A DNA stretch of 63,198 nt from contig JBBDYC010000002.1 in the NCBI GenBank assembly GCA_040901985.1, positions 102,457 to 165,654 on the forward strand. Direction: 5' to 3'. The position numbers were made by a program. Numbering within the stretch: position 1 is the first letter of the stretch; each line of letters begins with the position of its first letter. Source of the stretch: Gemmatimonadaceae bacterium (GTDB lineage Bacteria > Gemmatimonadota > Gemmatimonadetes > Gemmatimonadales > Gemmatimonadaceae). Positions 9,001 to 21,000 of the stretch are shown in pieces.

Positions 9001-12000
9001 GGTGCCGGCCGTCGCCGCGCGCGCCGCCAGGCCCGCCGGCAGCCGGACCGGAATCACGTCGAACATCGCCAGCGAGGTGAGGATCAGCAGGTTGGCCATC
9101 GCGAAGTAGAGCCAGGGATTCGTGCTGATCGTCCCGAACATCGTTCCCGTGACACCGGCGATGAGACCGAGCGTGGAGTAGACGGACGCCAGGCCGACCA
9201 CGTAGGCGCCGGTGAGCGCGGCGGTCCGCCAGCGGGGCGGCGCGCCCTCGCCGACCGTCTGCCCGCCGACGATCGCCGCGGTGATGGGGATCATCGGGTA
9301 GATGCACGGATTGAGGCTCTGCAGGACCCCGGCCGCGAAGACCAACGCGAGCGCGGTGACGGGACTCGCCGAGAGCTGGGCGGCGATGTTGGTGAAGTCC
9401 ATACGTTCAATCTACCGCGTCGCGGTCGGGGTCGGACTCGTCGTCCCGCCAGTCGAGGCCGTCCCCGACTAGGTTTCGCGCCATGGCCCCACAGTTCATT
9501 TACGTAATGAAGGCGTTGAAGAAGGTCATTCCGCCTTCGCGCATCATCCTCGACGACATCTGGCTCTCGTTCTATCCCGGCGCCAAGATCGGGGTGCTGG
9601 GCCCCAACGGTGCCGGCAAGTCATCGCTCCTGAAGATCATGGCCGGGGTGGACACCGAGTTCCAGGGCGAGGCGTGGCCGCACAAGGGCACCAAGATCAG
9701 CTACCTCCCGCAGGAGCCGCACCTCGACGAGTCGCTCGATGTACGGGGCAACGTGGAACTCGCCGTGAAGCCGCAGCGCGACCTCCTCAGGAAGTTCGAG
9801 GCGATCTCGGCGAAGTTCGGCGAGCCGATGGACGACGACGCGATGAACGCGCTGATCGAGGAGCAGGGGAAGGTGCAGGAGCGGATTGACGCGCTCGACC
9901 TCTGGAACCTCGACAACACGATCGAGGTGGCGATGGACGCGCTGCGTCTCCCACCGTCGGATGCCGGCGTGAAGCACCTCTCCGGCGGCGAGAAGCGGCG
10001 CGTGGCGCTGTGTCGCGTGCTCCTCGAGCAGCCCGACATGCTCCTGCTCGACGAACCGACCAATCACCTCGACGCCGAGTCGGTGGCGTGGCTGGAGCAC
10101 TACCTCGAGACCTTCCCGGGGACCGTTGTGGCAATCACGCACGACCGCTACTTCCTCGACAACGTGGCCAAGTGGATCCTCGAACTCGACCGCGGTCGCG
10201 GGGTGCCGTACGAAGGGAACTACTCGGGTTGGCTCGACCAGAAGCGGACACGGATGGCGCAGGAGGAGAAGGTCGCCTCGGCGCGGCAGCGGTCGCTGCA
10301 GCGCGAGCTCGAGTGGGTGCGGATGGCGCCGCGGGCGCGGCAGGCCAAGAGCAAGGCGCGATTGCAGAAGTACGAGGAACTTGCCAGCGAGGCGCAGAAC
10401 GAGCGGATCGCCAGCAACGAGATTGTCATTCCGCCGGCGCCGCGGCTCGGCAACGACGTGGTGATCGCGAAGGGGCTTCGAAAGGGCTATGGCGACACGC
10501 TGTTGATCGAGGGGCTCGACTTCTCGCTCCCGCGCGGTGGCATCGTCGGCGTGATCGGCCCCAACGGCGCCGGCAAGACGACGCTCTTCCGGATGATCAC
10601 CGGCCAGGAGCAACCCGACGGCGGGACGCTCAAGGTTGGCGAGACGGTCAAGCTCGCGTACGTGGACCAGTCCCGTACGCTCGACCCGAAGAAGTCGGCG
10701 TGGGAGGAGGTGTCGGGCGGCAACGAGACGATCCTCGTCGGCAAGAAGGAGATGAACACGCGCGCCTACCTCTCCAGCTTCAACTTCAAGGGAACCGACC
10801 AGCAGAAGAAGGTCGGCGTCCTCTCCGGCGGCGAACGCAACCGGCTGCACCTCGCCAAGACGGTGATGAGCGGCGGCAACCTGCTCCTCCTCGACGAGCC
10901 GACGAACGACCTTGACGTGGACACGCTGCGCGCGCTGGAGGAGGCGCTGGTGGACTACTCCGGATGCGCGGTGGTGATCTCGCACGACCGGTGGTTCCTC
11001 GACCGGCTGGCGACGCACATCCTGGCGTTCGAGGGCGACTCGGAGGTCGTCTGGTTCGAGGGGAATTATCAGGCGTACGTCGAGGACCTGCGGAAGCGGA
11101 AGGGCGCCGACGCGGACCAGCCGCACCGGATCAAGTTCAAGCCGCTGGTGCGGTGAGCTGAGGTCGCGCCCGCGGCCGGACCGCGCCGCCTCGGTTGCCG
11201 CCGGTCCTACCCGGAGCGATCTTCGCGACGTCCCACCTCACCACTGAGGCCTCCATGGGAGTCGTTGGCACGAGCGTCCCCCGCAAGGACGCCGCCGAGA
11301 AGGTGTCGGGGACCGCGCGCTACGTGGACGACATCACCTTCCCGGGGATGCTGCACGCGCGGACGGTGCGCACTACGATCCCGAGCGGGCGCGTCACCGG
11401 CGTGCGGCTCGACTTCGACCAGACCGGGTTTACCGTTGTGGACTGGCGCGACATCCCCGCCGCCGGCCGCAACATCATTGATCTGATCGTGCACGATCAA
11501 CCCTGTCTCGTCGAGTCCGAGGTGCGCCACGTCGGTGAGGCGGTGGTCCTCCTTGCGCACGACGACCGGGAGAAACTCCTCCAGGCGACGGTCGAGATTG
11601 ACTACGACCGCACCGAGCCCCTGCTCGACGCCGAACGCTCGGACAGGATCCACAAGCACATCCTGATAGAGAAGGGGAAGCTCGACCGCGGCTTCAATCA
11701 GGCAGACCTGATCGTCGAGGGCGAGTATCGCACCGGCCACCAGGAACACATTTACATCGAGACGAACGGGTGCATCGCCGTGCCGGAAGCGAATGGCGGC
11801 GTCACAATCTACGGCTCGCTCCAGTGTCCGTACTACGTGCACAAGGCGCTGGTGACGTTGCTCGGACTGCCGCGGCATCTGGTGCGCGTACTGCAGACGG
11901 AGCCCGGCGGAGGGTTCGGCGGCAAGGAGGAGTATCCCTCGCTGATCGCCGGCCACGCCGCGCTGCTCGCGCTCAAGTCTCGGCGACCGGTGAAGCTGGT

Positions 12001-18000: not shown

Positions 18001-21000
18001 CGGGTCGTCGTTCTTCTTCATCTGGCTCGACCGGCACCTGGCAGCGCCGCCGGCGCCGGCGCCGCGCGTCGAGGGCGAGCTCTGGATGGTGCACAGCGGC
18101 GGTTTCTATAGGATGGAGAAGCGGCTGGTCGAGGCGGGACAGGTGCCGGCCGTGCTGCACTGGGTGAAGTGGGAGGCGACCCTCACCTGGGCGAGCGGGA
18201 TGATCCTCCTCGCTGTGATTTACTACCTGACGGAAGGCGTCTATCTCCTCGACGCGTCCATCTCCGCGCTCACGAACGGCGCTGCGATCGCGTTCTCGCT
18301 CGGGGTGCTCGTCGTCGGGTGGCTTGCCTACGAGGCCGTCTGGCGCTCGCCATTGGCGCGTTCCGGTTGGCTGGCGACGCTAGCGACTCTGGTGCTCTTC
18401 GGCGCAATCACCTTCGTGCTCTTTCGCACGATCAGCGGCCGTGCCGCCTTCATCCACGTGGGCTCGCTCCTGGGCACGATCATGGTGGCGAACGTCTGGG
18501 TGGTGATCCTGCCTTCCCAGCGCCGGATGGTCGCGGCGGCGGCGCGCGGCGAGGAGCCGGATTTTTCCGAGGGAACGAAGGCGAAAGTCCGCTCGGTGCA
18601 CAACAGCTACCTCACCTTCCCGGTGATCTTCACGATGGTGAGCAGCCACTTCCCGCAGACGTACGCGGGGGCGAACGGCTGGATTGTGCTGGCGCTGCTC
18701 GCGGTCGCCGGCGCCGCCGCGCGCCACGCGATGATCGGCGGCCCCGTGCGCGGCGTACGCAAGGAGTGGGCGCTCGCGCCGATGGCGGCCGGGATCGCCG
18801 CTGCGATCGCGATGACGATGCCGGCACCAATGCCGACGGCGGGGGAGGGCACGACCATCGAAGGCGCATCATTCGCCGAGGCGCGGGTGGTGATCGCCGC
18901 GCGGTGCGCCTCGTGTCATTCCATCGCGCCGACCGATCCCATCTTCACCGCGCCGCCCAACGGGGTTGCCTTCGACACGCCGCAGCAGATCCGCGGGCTC
19001 TCAGCGCGGATCCTCGAGCGCGCGGTGGTGCAGCGCACGATGCCGTTCGCGAATCTCTCGGGGATGACCGACGCCGAGCGCGACGTCCTGCGTCGATGGA
19101 TCGAGGCGGGCGCGCCACTGCGGTGACCGGTCCGGGCGTCCCGGGAATCCGGAACGTCCGGAGCGTTTGGCGGCCGCGTTAGCGTCCGGTACGCTTCCGC
19201 AGGATCGCCGGGAAGGACCGTGTCCGGAGCTCGTCGAGCGATAGCCCCGTCCGCGCGAGGACGTCGTCCTCGGTGGTCGCCCCACAGTTGATGGCGCGCA
19301 GGAAATAGTTGAGCAGCCCCTGGCCGGTGGCGGCGTCGTCGAAGACGTCGCCGACGAGCGTGGCCTGGGCGGCCTTCTCCACGAAGTTGCGAAGGCGCTC
19401 GACGGCCGGCGCCATCCCGCTGCCGAAAAACCGGAAGAGCGCCGCGTAGCGCGTGACAAGCTGCGCCGGGTGGAGATCCCAGCCCTGATGGAACCCTCCG
19501 GCGAGCGAGTGCATCACGTCGTCGTAATGCCGGCGCCAGGCCTGGTGCACACGGAGGGCATTCTCGGCGTGCTGCGCCGCCGTGAGCGCCTTGTCTTCGG
19601 CGCGGATCGGCGGCACGGGGAGCAACGTCGTGGAGCCGTCGCTCAGCCAGACGCCGGTGCCGGCGAGTGCCGCCTGCATCACGTGCTTGGCGAAGTCGCA
19701 CGCCGGATGCCGCATATGCTGGTGGTCGGCCGTGATGCCGAGGGCGGCCGTGTAGTCGTAGGTGCCAAAATGCGCGCCGGTGATGCGCCCCCCGCCTGCG
19801 GCGACGATCGCCGGCAACGGACAATTACCATCGGGGCCGACGATGTTCTGTGGCGTCTCGACCATGATCTCGAACCGCAGTGCACCGGCGTCGAGTCCGA
19901 GGCGACGTTCCAGTGCGTCCAGCGACCGGACGAAGTGCTCGACCTGCGCGACCGTCGTGATCTTCGGCAGGGTGATGACGAAGTTGTCGGGGAGCTCCCC
20001 GCCACTGGCGCCGCAGAGGGCGTCGAGCACCAGGGTGAGTGTGCGTTCGCTCCGAGCGCGCAACTCCTCGTTGAGCGGCTTCACCCGCAGGCCGATGAAG
20101 GGCGGCAACACCTTGTCAGTGATTCCCTGGGCCAGTGCCGCGCCTACGGCGCTGGCGTGGCCGTCTTCCTCGGCGTCCGGCCGGTTGCCGAACCCATCCT
20201 CGAAATCCACCCGGAAGTCCTCGACCGGGAGCGTGGCCAACCGCGCCTGGATCAACGCGTGGATACGGGCGGCCTCGGCGTCGTCGGGCCAGCCGAGCGC
20301 CGCGGCCAGGGAGGCGGGGTCGGGGGCAAAGGCCTCCATCGCGCCGCGGGCGGCGGCGCCGAGTCGCGCCGCGATGTCGGGGCGGAAGAGCTGGGCGCCA
20401 CCATACACCGTGTGGACTGGCTGGCGGCGCGGCGAATCCCCCGGATGGGAGGCCGCGAACGCAAGATTGGCAGCGCGAAGGTCGGGCATCGCCGGAGAAT
20501 GTAGCGAACCGATGGCGGCGACGTTGCGGGTGGGTGTGGCGATGCTAACTTCGCTGCACCCCCGCTCCGGAGCTTCCCGTGCGCCGTGCCGTGCCGTTCG
20601 CTGGTCTGATCGTCGTGATCGCCGCCAGCGCCTGCGGCTCCGACGCCCCTCCGCCCCCGCCTCCGCCGCGCGACGCCGCGCAGCAGCGAGCGATTGACAG
20701 CACGATCGGCGCGTCCGGGCTCCCGGGTGCCCAAGGGGTGCGCGGCGCGCTCGCCGCGAGCGACTCGGCGGCCCGCCGTGCCCGCGAACTCGACTCCCTC
20801 TCGAGGATTCCCTGATGCGCCCAATCCGCCTGTTTCTCATCGCGGTCACCCTTGGTGCCGCGCTCACCGCTGCGCCCTCGCCGGCAGCGGCGCAGGACCT
20901 CGAGATCACGGTTGACCTGCTCGACCGGTTCGTAATCGCCTACGACCGGGAGAAGGAGGACCTCGGCGCGCTCGAGCCGGAATTGGCGGCGGTGGACGAG

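Follow-up and report, generated by a model that had tools for sequence, protein, structure and literature searches.

What does a 436-residue protein of the DUF6986 family do at the end of a purine catabolic cluster in a Gemmatimonadaceae bacterium? A first-pass annotation of this DNA had proposed that it is the glyoxylate-consuming last step of purine breakdown. The window is the whole stretch of 63,198 nucleotides that was analyzed, and the following genes were found in it.

11195-13390 (likely start 11255), plus strand: xanthine dehydrogenase molybdopterin subunit (PF02738, PF20256, PF01315)
13387-13869, plus strand: xanthine dehydrogenase [2Fe-2S] subunit (PF01799, PF00111)
about 13866-14693 (start approximate; ORF open from 13509), plus strand: xanthine dehydrogenase FAD subunit (PF00941, PF03450)
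14690-16066, plus strand: allantoinase, AllB type (TIGR03178, 554 bits, cut-off 358)
16059-17060, plus strand: allantoicase (TIGR02961, 433 bits, cut-off 278; PF03561, E 1.8e-102)
17048-17596, plus strand: OHCU decarboxylase (PF09349, E 3.6e-46; NF010372, 189 bits, cut-off 124)
17593-17928, plus strand: 5-hydroxyisourate (HIU) hydrolase (ORF MISTHVLD...YRGS, C-terminal end YRGS)
17888-19126, plus strand: membrane urate oxidase PuuD (PF06181, E 1.9e-100)
19179-20489, minus strand: DUF6986 gene, 436 aa (PF22484, E 1.7e-171, 571 bits, cut-off 27)

The DUF6986 gene does close a purine catabolic cluster, and every gene named in the first-pass annotation was recovered where it had been placed. The gene is convergent with the plus-strand cluster that leads from xanthine to ureidoglycolate, at 52 nt from stop to stop; its minus strand is a detail missing from that annotation. 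An internal ATG at 11255 in the ORF of the molybdopterin subunit is the start coordinate of the earlier finding. The top NCBIfam matches of this subunit are pucD and XdhA, both under their cut-offs. In the FAD subunit, PF00941 and PF03450 fall on residues 128-392 of the ORF 13509-14693. Homologues of the HIU hydrolase were found by tblastn in 55/80 DUF6986 loci, one of them matching PF00576 (E 2.3e-37), and PuuD possesses a CxxCH motif in its C-terminal part.

Allantoicase yields ureidoglycolate and urea. The genome (99.97% complete, 19 contigs) was searched with profiles for enzymes that could act on what follows, and there were zero matches to PF04115, PF01274, PF00463, and TIGR01504. Thus AllA, malate synthase, isocitrate lyase, and glyoxylate carboligase were not found in it, in agreement with the annotation. 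Urease (alpha) and a complete urea carboxylase were likewise not found in this genome, and glyoxylate is therefore the main usable product of the pathway. Among the glyoxylate sinks tested (malate synthase, glyoxylate carboligase, and isocitrate lyase), there is none besides DUF6986. The reading ranked first, with a slightly better than even chance, is that DUF6986 condenses the glyoxylate formed after allantoicase with acetyl-CoA to malyl-CoA or malate. If this is true, the ureide branch's only useful carbon enters central metabolism. The main rival is possible, if doubtful: DUF6986 would be a ureidoglycolate lyase (UGL) only, a bacterial equivalent of AllA and of the malate-synthase-like UGL of eukaryotes, and would supply the one step that the pathway lacks. 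AllA, which this genome lacks, is present in 0/251 Gemmatimonadota and in 1/50 other DUF6986 genomes. On the favoured reading, nearly all DUF6986 genomes have no known gene for the step from ureidoglycolate to glyoxylate, which counts against it. A UGL role would, however, leave the present genome with no recognised glyoxylate sink.

The fold was explored through an AF2 model with a pLDDT of 92.6 and a pTM of 0.91. A pLDDT of 80 had been given before; that figure was not reproduced, and the superfamily fold was. The top structural match (VIA-align) was the R. sphaeroides malyl-CoA lyase 4l9y (Z 28.0, rmsd 2.4 A, 296/314 residues), a structure holding glyoxylate and propionyl-CoA. Further matches were CLYBL (Z 27.3), C. 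aurantiacus MCL (26.5), Haloferax malate synthase (24.6), and E. coli malate synthase A (MSA, 23.1). Foldseek found the same families, so the placement in the CitE / malyl-CoA lyase / malate synthase superfamily stands. The weak NCBIfam match to a malyl-CoA lyase model (E 3.5e-6) was also seen again. It had been claimed that no PDB relative can be found by sequence; this is incorrect, as a profile search reaches 5ugr (E 1.3e-4). PF03328 stays below its cut-off on the protein (19.3 vs 25 bits), and PF01274 gave no match at E<=0.01.

Across 44 DUF6986 sequences, D95, E97, D98, E211, G242, Y244, and D245 are invariant. The other motif residues once listed as invariant fared less well: D91, R93, M209, and T243 are at least 90% conserved, and V210 and P213 are not conserved. 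The conserved superfamily set was found to be present, with D95/E97/D98, R135, E211, D245, W337-x-x-H340-P341, and the lid motif F383-D384-D385-A-A-T. According to PMC3832036, CitE-like enzymes and malate synthases both conserve an Asp-x-Glu-Asp motif, an Arg, a Glu and an Asp that bind Mg, and an Asp on the lid. Each residue of this list has an invariant counterpart in DUF6986. With hhalign (probability 89%), E211 falls on MSA E250 and D245 on MSA D278; T243 is at the MSA Arg276 position. In HMMER alignments, the R135 strand pairs with the equivalent strand of 3r4i, a CitE-like protein, and QGWDLHP with WAIHP, a motif of malyl-CoA lyases. FDDAAT was matched by eye to MEDAAT of MSA, which bears D447. 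The lid of the model (residues 376-389) has low pLDDT.

DUF6986 would be a Mg2+-dependent lyase/synthase, a family of its own within the malyl-CoA lyase / malate synthase superfamily. At its core it would reversibly link glyoxylate and an acyl-CoA, at the alpha-carbon of the latter. By homology with known enzymes, Mg2+ would be held by E211 and D245, with glyoxylate on the Mg2+. D95 may correspond to the malyl-CoA lyase Asp that holds the catalytic Arg, and E97 and D98 to the Glu-Asp pair that holds two Mg-bound waters. R135 would polarise the carbonyl and stabilise the enolate, and D385, on the flexible lid, would take the proton from acetyl-CoA. The substrates and the metal are likewise predicted, and malyl-CoA may or may not be hydrolyzed. 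As a UGL, the protein would instead run malyl-CoA lyase chemistry on an isostere, HOOC-CH(OH)-NH-CO-NH2 for HOOC-CH(OH)-CH2-CO-SCoA. R135 would then take the proton from the hydroxyl bound to Mg, and the leaving nitrogen would receive one from D385. Tyr244 counts against the favoured reading. It occupies the Ala position of malyl-CoA lyases, where a bulky residue is suggested in PMC3832036 to hinder propionyl-CoA.

The condensation of glyoxylate with an acyl-CoA gains support from a sister clade of DUF6986 in ethylmalonyl-CoA (EMC) pathway operons, with the order ccr-DUF6986-mcd-mch-ecm. Here DUF6986 is in the malyl-CoA lyase slot, which is new in this analysis. In L135 and L137, a homologue with 49-50% identity to the protein of the window has crotonyl-CoA carboxylase/reductase (TIGR01751, 562 and 560 bits, cut-off 379) on one side and an acyl-CoA dehydrogenase on the other. 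A B12 acyl-CoA mutase is near DUF6986 in both, and the MaoC / mesaconyl-CoA hydratase domain (PF19315, 60 bits, cut-off 26.5) scored in L135 only. A similar operon is present in 11/80 metagenome loci (L145-L153, L183, and L184). PF03328, PF01274, and PF00463 were not found in the source genomes of L135 and L137 (G315 and G419). With no other lyase of the superfamily there, DUF6986 is the sole candidate for the lyase that the EMC pathway needs.

The EMC clade forms a monophyletic group (SH-aLRT 100) with an ordinary stem branch of 0.21 and is nested among purine-type lineages. In a comparison of 18 EMC-clade sequences (13 of which have EMC genes beside them) with 91 from purine contexts, 120 positions have the identical residue and are at least 90% conserved in both groups. 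Consistent differences were found only at H340 (N in 18/18 EMC) and H240 (His in 91/91 purine, 1/18 EMC); the protein of the window is a purine-type member with both. At equal divergence, the purine type is constrained no less than the EMC type. The slot and the near-identical conserved residues of the EMC clade support acyl-CoA- and glyoxylate-dependent chemistry; that its own function is predicted from gene context counts against the favoured reading. A UGL-only role is harder to fit, as the EMC clade has to work on CoA esters and still has the 120 positions in common with the purine type, in which constraint is not relaxed. H340 also represents the ancestral state, the 'HP' motif seen in relatives that bind CoA.

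The tie to purine genes, previously counted at 54/80 loci, was confirmed. A purine gene lies within 6 kb of DUF6986 in 62/80 related genome loci, and DUF6986 is purine-linked in 30/80 metagenome loci. It is directly 3' of a same-strand purine gene (<=210 nt) in 28/80 loci. In 7 metagenome loci it is flanked by OHCU decarboxylase and HIU hydrolase, at distances of 57-72 and 18 nt. These contexts of the core clade, and the invariant glyoxylate- and Mg-binding residues, speak against a quite improbable reading in which DUF6986 is another 2-hydroxy- or 2-oxo-acid lyase or aldolase, loosely tied to purines (e.g., oxalurate or hydroxypyruvate-type), or has a regulatory or moonlighting role with neighbouring Ser/Thr kinases. 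Such kinases adjoin DUF6986 in 22/80 loci, one 1006-aa protein is a kinase-DUF6986 fusion, and 8/80 loci have no purine gene despite ample flanking DNA, all of which would suit that reading. So would a divergent clade of one Gemmatimonadota genus (13 genomes) and G081. It lacks allantoicase, carries D91S/C, R93L, and T243A, and has a Zn-dependent dehydrogenase and a 2-oxoacid:ferredoxin oxidoreductase as neighbours.

AllA, malate synthase, and MSL-b, a divergent malate-synthase-like protein, were absent from all 160 DUF6986 loci examined. Among 28 allantoicase-positive Gemmatimonadota, 23 have DUF6986 and the remaining 5 all have malate synthase; none is without both. Those 5/28 possess neither AllA nor DUF6986, which does not favour a UGL. 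Malate synthase is present in 12/23 of the genomes with DUF6986. One unpublished genome, G152, belongs to these 23. In allantoicase-positive Myxococcota, malate synthase was found as often with DUF6986 (11/14) as without it (14/18). Therefore, DUF6986 does not simply replace a malate synthase that the cell lacks. Where both occur it would be a second one, which counts against the favoured reading and agrees with a UGL. In addition, DUF6986 was never the partner of an isocitrate lyase lacking malate synthase in the 251 genomes searched.

AllA is present in 4/18 of the allantoicase-positive Myxococcota without DUF6986, as a UGL would predict, but also in 6/14 of those with it. One of the genomes with both (G269) has, in L039, a DUF6986 with all 40 conserved sites beside a protein kinase. 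At least one of AllA, DUF6986, and MSL-b was found in 31/32 of these Myxococcota. MSL-b overlaps with DUF6986 in 1 genome and with AllA in none, and at least 604 long proteins are fusions of MSL-b with allantoicase. DUF6986 is within 8 kb of allantoicase in 7/8 AllA-negative vs 2/6 AllA-positive genomes, which, like the distribution and fusions of MSL-b, speaks for a UGL. AllA can take the same operon position, after OHCU decarboxylase and HIU hydrolase (L113 and L115). It is just beyond HIU hydrolase on the opposite strand in L117 and abuts allantoicase in L119. The DUF6986 copies of these four genomes are elsewhere, not near purine genes; L114 and L118 are long-branch, L116 is in the EMC clade, and the fourth copy is that of L039. 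AllA in the slot of DUF6986 argues for a UGL and against the favoured reading. These exclusion patterns may merely track ancestry, however, as related genomes are not independent. Four Myxococcota (G315, G401, G419, and G446) have a high-scoring DUF6986 but no allantoicase or ureidoglycine aminohydrolase, which also weighs against a UGL. One enzyme with both reactions, glyoxylate with acetyl-CoA and the splitting of (S)-ureidoglycolate, would reconcile the evidence and is rather unlikely. The proposed glyoxylate-consuming last step is partly supported, by the fold, catalytic residues, purine tie, and EMC clade, and the UGL rival is still a serious contender.

Of the known enzymes, L-malyl-CoA / beta-methylmalyl-CoA lyase (Mcl1, Rhodobacter sphaeroides, 4L9Y; CitE-like, HpcH_HpaI) is the best structural match. 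It has the Asp-x-Glu-Asp motif, the Arg, the Mg-binding Glu and Asp, W-x-x-H-P, and the lid Asp in common with DUF6986, a clade of which fills its place in EMC operons. Identity is only about 18%, and DUF6986 is about 120 residues longer. Unlike malyl-CoA lyases, it has Tyr rather than Ala beside the Mg-binding Asp, and its lid DDAAT resembles that of malate synthase. Malate synthases A, G, and H (AceB 3CUZ, GlcB, and Haloferax AceB) have the similar motifs DFED, ET, DY, W..HP, and (E/D)DAAT, match at Z 20-25, and in isoform H are of similar size. DUF6986 does not have the N-terminal domain found in MSA and MSG, has Thr at the Arg276 position, and is never paired with isocitrate lyase in the 251 genomes searched. 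A precedent for a malate synthase in an allantoin cluster is DAL7, the dedicated enzyme of the yeast DAL cluster (PMC13751858, a review).

The zebrafish malate-synthase-like protein DrMSL, as described in PMC10120013, is a proven UGL without malate synthase activity. It counts against the favoured reading and is a precedent for a UGL. It is of the same superfamily, its gene is associated with allantoicase and urate oxidase, and it has Ile in place of MSA Arg276; that DUF6986, too, has no Arg there (T243) speaks for a UGL. Unlike DUF6986, it is a member of the actual malate synthase orthogroup, carries Trp365Met, and has lost the conservation of its acetyl-CoA site (PMC10120013). DUF6986 keeps this Trp as W337, which speaks against a UGL, and has its conserved residues in common with a CoA-pathway clade. 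AllA (PF04115) has the operon slot after HIU hydrolase in common with DUF6986, and it and purine-type DUF6986 are nearly mutually exclusive. It is a separate Pfam family with a different fold, and it had no sequence match to DUF6986 in the profile scans run. If DUF6986 does the job of AllA, it is an analogue and not a relative. With a shape like that of malyl-CoA lyase and malate synthase, this unstudied enzyme most likely handles glyoxylate, the last product of the pathway.

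The window has a G+C content of approximately 70% and contains a purine breakdown cluster on its forward strand. The gene for the DUF6986 protein is located at the end of this cluster. The coordinates and gene list in the first-pass annotation were borne out by the reading of open reading frames (ORFs) and by profile matches, as follows.

11195-19126 (+), the cluster; its first genes encode the three subunits of xanthine dehydrogenase (ORFs and profile matches)
within 11195-19126 (+), allantoinase (TIGR03178, 554 bits, above cut-off)
within 11195-19126 (+), allantoicase (TIGR02961, 433 bits, above cut-off)
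within 11195-19126 (+), OHCU decarboxylase
17593-17928 (+), HIU hydrolase with a C-terminal YRGS
ending at 19126 (+), PuuD-type membrane urate oxidase with a CxxCH motif, the last gene of the cluster
19179-20489 (-), DUF6986, ATG at 20489 (PF22484, E 1.7e-171)

The stop codon of the DUF6986 gene is 52 nt from that of PuuD. Thus, the gene and the cluster run toward each other, and they are not co-transcribed here. A 409-aa ORF (20815-22044, +) is divergent from DUF6986; its N-terminus resembles a signal peptide, and neither Pfam nor NCBIfam gave a match for it. The search for tRNAs in the window found none. Toward the end of the window (54000-63198), the G+C content drops from about 0.70 to 0.60-0.64. 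This region possesses a tyrosine integrase (55958-56995), numerous small ORFs that belong to no family, and, at its very end, an M15 peptidase (62637-63179). The region probably represents a mobile element that integrated here or what is left of a prophage.

The assembly (2.64 Mb, 19 contigs) is 99.97% complete. The ureidoglycolate lyase AllA (PF04115) had no match in the whole genome, and searches of the genome for malate synthase, isocitrate lyase, glyoxylate carboligase, and the ureidoglycolate dehydrogenase family found none of them. Thus, no known gene was found for two steps, the conversion of ureidoglycolate to glyoxylate and the further use of glyoxylate. No HpcH/CitE-like gene was found in this genome besides DUF6986. 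Several class-V aminotransferases are present, so glyoxylate may be transaminated to glycine. The urease alpha subunit was not found in the genome, and urea carboxylase is represented by biotin-carboxylase parts only. Urea from the allantoicase route seems to be unused and may be excreted.

The protein is a full-length member of PF22484, which it matches with 571 bits (cut-off 27) over residues 5-427, covering positions 2-406 of the 408 in the profile. Matches to characterized relatives are weak and below threshold: 26 bits (cut-off 500) for the NCBIfam malyl-CoA lyase model, the weak hit that the first-pass annotation had stated, and 19.3 bits (cut-off 25) for PF03328 (HpcH_HpaI). PF01274 (MS_TIM-barrel) gave no match at E<=0.01. 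The hhalign alignment with E. coli malate synthase A (AceB, 3CUZ; MSA) was limited to residues 171-252, with a probability of 89%. An AlphaFold2 model built from a 44-sequence alignment has a pLDDT of 92.6 and a pTM of 0.91, and its sole uncertain part is the loop 376-389 (VGDVFDDAAT). Foldseek matched the model to CitE-like lyases, malate synthases, and malyl-CoA lyases. The top VIA-align match of this predicted model was the crystal structure of Rhodobacter sphaeroides malyl-CoA lyase (4l9y), with a Z of 28.0 and an rmsd of 2.4 A over 296 of 314 residues. The TIM barrel and C-terminal lid superpose on that crystal structure over residues 9-401 of the prediction. CLYBL, other malyl-CoA lyases, 3r4i/3qqw, Haloferax malate synthase (Z 24.6), MSA (23.1), and the malate synthase GlcB (about 21) followed.

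PMC3832036 describes a residue set common to the superfamily, namely Asp-x-Glu-Asp, an Arg, the Mg-binding Glu and Asp, and a lid Asp. Invariant counterparts of this set were found in the 44 sequences as D95/E97/D98, R135, E211, D245, and D384/D385, where E211 and D245 were placed by HMMER and hhalign and the lid Asp was assigned from its motif by eye. In the hhalign alignment, E211, T243, and D245 fall on E250, R276, and D278 of AceB. The lid FDDAAT was matched by eye to the MEDAAT of malate synthase; the lid was aligned by none of the tools. By eye again, the sequence has motifs like (E/D)DAAT, which carries the catalytic Asp, and W..HP with its Trp. In 80 sequences of the core set, conservation is 96-100% at 40 polar positions. 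Contacts with CoA in relatives are chiefly through the backbone and hydrophobic residues, according to PMC3112382 and PMC3832036, and a mapping of the acetyl-CoA site from these contacts is affected by the unsure alignment of DUF6986 outside the motifs.

The surroundings of DUF6986 genes were explored in a scan with one genome per species, in which 600 stretches matched and 514 relatives were obtained. The best 80 loci were analyzed by local tblastn with the window's own proteins, and alignments shorter than half of the query were dropped. HIU hydrolase was found in 55 of these loci, OHCU decarboxylase in 54, allantoicase in 48, allantoinase in 45, PuuD in 28, and the xanthine dehydrogenase subunits in 24-26. 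A purine gene lies within 6 kb in 62/80 loci; the remaining 18 comprise five short contigs, five loci with an adjoining protein kinase, and eight without anything. DUF6986 is on the same strand and at most 210 nt downstream of HIU hydrolase (18) or the dehydrogenase FAD subunit (10) in 28 of the 80 loci. In seven metagenome loci it is flanked by OHCU decarboxylase and HIU hydrolase, at distances of 57-72 and 18 nt. Clustering of neighbor ORFs indicated uricase, a deaminase, and a purine/allantoin permease as further partners; AllA and malate synthase were never among the clustered ORFs. The non-purine loci L020, L028, L043, L075, L136, L138, and L141 have no telling neighbors. Ser/Thr protein kinases, some with rhodanese domains, adjoin DUF6986 in 22/80 loci (for example, L041:2-3256, L038:11413-12693, L039:2002-3276, and L048:3011-7166; protein P0003). 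A fusion search found just two long DUF6986 proteins, a 1006-aa kinase fusion and a probable mis-join.

A total of 251 Gemmatimonadota genomes, each at least 90% complete, were searched. DUF6986 (E<1e-100) was present in 37, allantoicase in 28, malate synthase in 86, isocitrate lyase in 59, and AllA in none. Allantoicase and DUF6986 occur together in 23 genomes (one of them, G152, unpublished), of which 12 have malate synthase, 11 of these with isocitrate lyase as well. All five genomes with allantoicase and no DUF6986 have malate synthase. A clean one-for-one replacement of malate synthase by DUF6986 was rejected, as the two often co-occur. A partnership with isocitrate lyase was also rejected: none of the 251 genomes has isocitrate lyase and DUF6986 without malate synthase, and isocitrate lyase was found in 0/5 Myxococcota tested.

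Five purine clusters of Gemmatimonadota (L089-L093; genomes G114, G115, G140, G160, and G193) end at uricase or PuuD. These clusters lack DUF6986, AllA, and MSL-b; the last is a divergent family of malate-synthase-like proteins, about 680 aa long and 23-26% identical to AceB. Malate synthase is present in all five genomes and isocitrate lyase is missing in four. DUF6986 without allantoicase was found in 14 Gemmatimonadota genomes; these copies form a divergent clade and have no purine genes near them. This clade (L084-L086 and L088 from one genus with 13 genomes, and L087) has D91S/C, R93L, and T243A. It adjoins a Zn-dependent dehydrogenase and a 2-oxoacid:ferredoxin oxidoreductase with a glutamate-synthase-like subunit, in genomes that lack allantoicase.

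Outside Gemmatimonadota, 50 of the 80 locus genomes were checked after 15 short or duplicate loci had been dropped, with genome completeness not reported; AllA was present in 1/50 and any PF01274 match in 17/50. Ureidoglycine aminohydrolase, as another source of ureidoglycolate, was rejected, with 0/20 allantoicase-less DUF6986 genomes above the TIGR03214 cut-off.

Among 151 Myxococcota genomes, allantoicase was found in 32, and 14 of these also possess DUF6986. AllA is present in 6 of the 14 and canonical malate synthase in 11, and a clean one-for-one swap of DUF6986 for AllA was rejected on those six. Their DUF6986 copies are four long-branch sequences (L110, L112, L114, and L118), one of the type found in ethylmalonyl-CoA (EMC) pathway operons (L116), and one associated with a kinase (L039). 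AllA follows HIU hydrolase in L113 and L115 and adjoins the cluster end in L117 and L119; the DUF6986 copy in these four genomes is elsewhere (L114, L118, L116, and L039). The 18 Myxococcota with allantoicase and without DUF6986 have AllA (4), canonical malate synthase (14), or MSL-b (13), and one has none of the three. MSL-b is almost never found in one genome with AllA or DUF6986 among the 151. It adjoins purine genes in four fetched loci (L095:2173-4368, L096:1731-3782, L097:4714-6786, and L098 from 9418; Myxococcota G393, G398, G437, and G438). It keeps the malate synthase catalytic residues, with Trp for Arg276 and GWHDF instead of GRWDY. At the acetyl-CoA-site positions of MSA it has T95F, but M330 and P369 are retained. 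At least 604 four-domain fusions (about 1550 aa) join OHCU decarboxylase, an MSL-b module, a beta-lactamase fold, and allantoicase.

Judged at the genome level, DUF6986 behaves like AllA. These co-occurrence and slot patterns favor an AllA-equivalent role. However, the exclusions among AllA, DUF6986, and MSL-b may follow ancestry, as related genomes are not independent. As a ureidoglycolate lyase alone, a reading given somewhat under one chance in three, the protein would leave the genome studied here with no recognized glyoxylate sink.

A different indication comes from four Myxococcota that have a high-scoring DUF6986 and lack allantoicase, ureidoglycine aminohydrolase, malate synthase, and isocitrate lyase. 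In L135 and L137, DUF6986 has crotonyl-CoA carboxylase/reductase (TIGR01751 equivalog, 562/560 bits, cut-off 379) on one side and, on the other, an acyl-CoA dehydrogenase whose N-terminus is much extended. Both loci also possess a B12 acyl-CoA mutase, and L135 continues with a MaoC/mesaconyl-CoA hydratase domain. These genes are the EMC pathway set, and DUF6986 is the lone lyase-like gene, in the place of the L-malyl-CoA/beta-methylmalyl-CoA lyase. PF03328, PF01274, and PF00463 were not found in the two genomes that carry these loci. When metagenomes were scanned with the L137 protein, 573 relatives turned up in 600 stretches; of 80 loci, 11 have the same operon and 30 have purine genes. Operons of the EMC type, with ccr with CBS domains, mcd-like, mch-like, and ecm-like genes and with DUF6986 as the sole lyase, are located at L135:942-8486, L137:6295-14455, and metagenome loci L145-L153, L183, and L184.

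The EMC clade is monophyletic (SH-aLRT 100) with an ordinary stem branch (0.21), and in a quick, midpoint-rooted tree it is placed among purine-type lineages by nodes supported at 80-89 only. Excluding fragments below 330 residues, 18 EMC-clade sequences (13 with EMC neighbors) were compared with 91 from purine contexts. The same residue is at least 90% conserved in both groups at 120 positions, and just two positions separate them. Position 340 is Asn in 18/18 EMC-clade and His in 87/91 purine-context sequences; position 240 is His in 91/91 of the latter and 1/18 of the former. When subsets of equal divergence are compared, the number of invariant columns is about the same in the purine type and the EMC clade, and there was no sign of relaxed constraint in the purine type. 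The family-level evidence indicates that purine-type DUF6986 would keep an acyl-CoA- and glyoxylate-dependent active site.

Condensation of glyoxylate with an acyl-CoA, as the first-pass annotation had proposed, is ranked first and appears slightly better than an even chance. The ureidoglycolate step would then be spontaneous or carried out by allantoicase, the latter an idea from older enzymology. Some other reaction is improbable. Within the condensation reading, a minor share goes to the tentative view that one active site performs both terminal steps, which fits all observations. In step one, (S)-ureidoglycolate would be split and urea released, with glyoxylate held on Mg2+; in step two, the held glyoxylate would react with acetyl-CoA to give malate. 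A single gene would then stand in place of AllA and malate synthase. Such a site would explain competition for the AllA slot by a protein that has fully kept the CoA-lyase machinery of its EMC sister clade. It would also explain why AllA and malate synthase are missing in this 2.6-Mb genome and in 11/23 related allantoicase-positive genomes, and why H240 and H340 are kept in the purine clade alone.

The DUF6986 family comprises at least 8000 clusters at 90% identity, from Gemmatimonadota, Acidobacteriota, Myxococcota, Bacteroidota, Elusimicrobiota, and others. Its members are named "DUF6986 family protein," "citrate lyase beta subunit," or "hypothetical" in databases, with no functional name, and a full-text literature search for "DUF6986" found no paper. 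If its function were assigned, the final gap in purine breakdown would be filled for many phyla of soil and freshwater, and the EMC operons of some Myxococcota would gain their missing lyase. Whichever of the two reactions proves right, reconstructed pathways with a gap at ureidoglycolate, glyoxylate, or both would be corrected.

A malate synthase in the allantoin cluster of Streptomyces would be a precedent; a literature search for it found no paper. Ureidoglycolate is isosteric with the malyl portion of malyl-CoA. According to PMC10120013, a malate-synthase-like protein of zebrafish has been proven to act as a ureidoglycolate lyase and has no malate synthase activity. The zebrafish protein's group has other residues at Arg276 and Trp365 (MSA numbering) and an unconserved acetyl-CoA site. 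DUF6986 has T243 at Arg276 and keeps the Trp. Arg276 is missing in malyl-CoA lyases as well, as it is in DUF6986.
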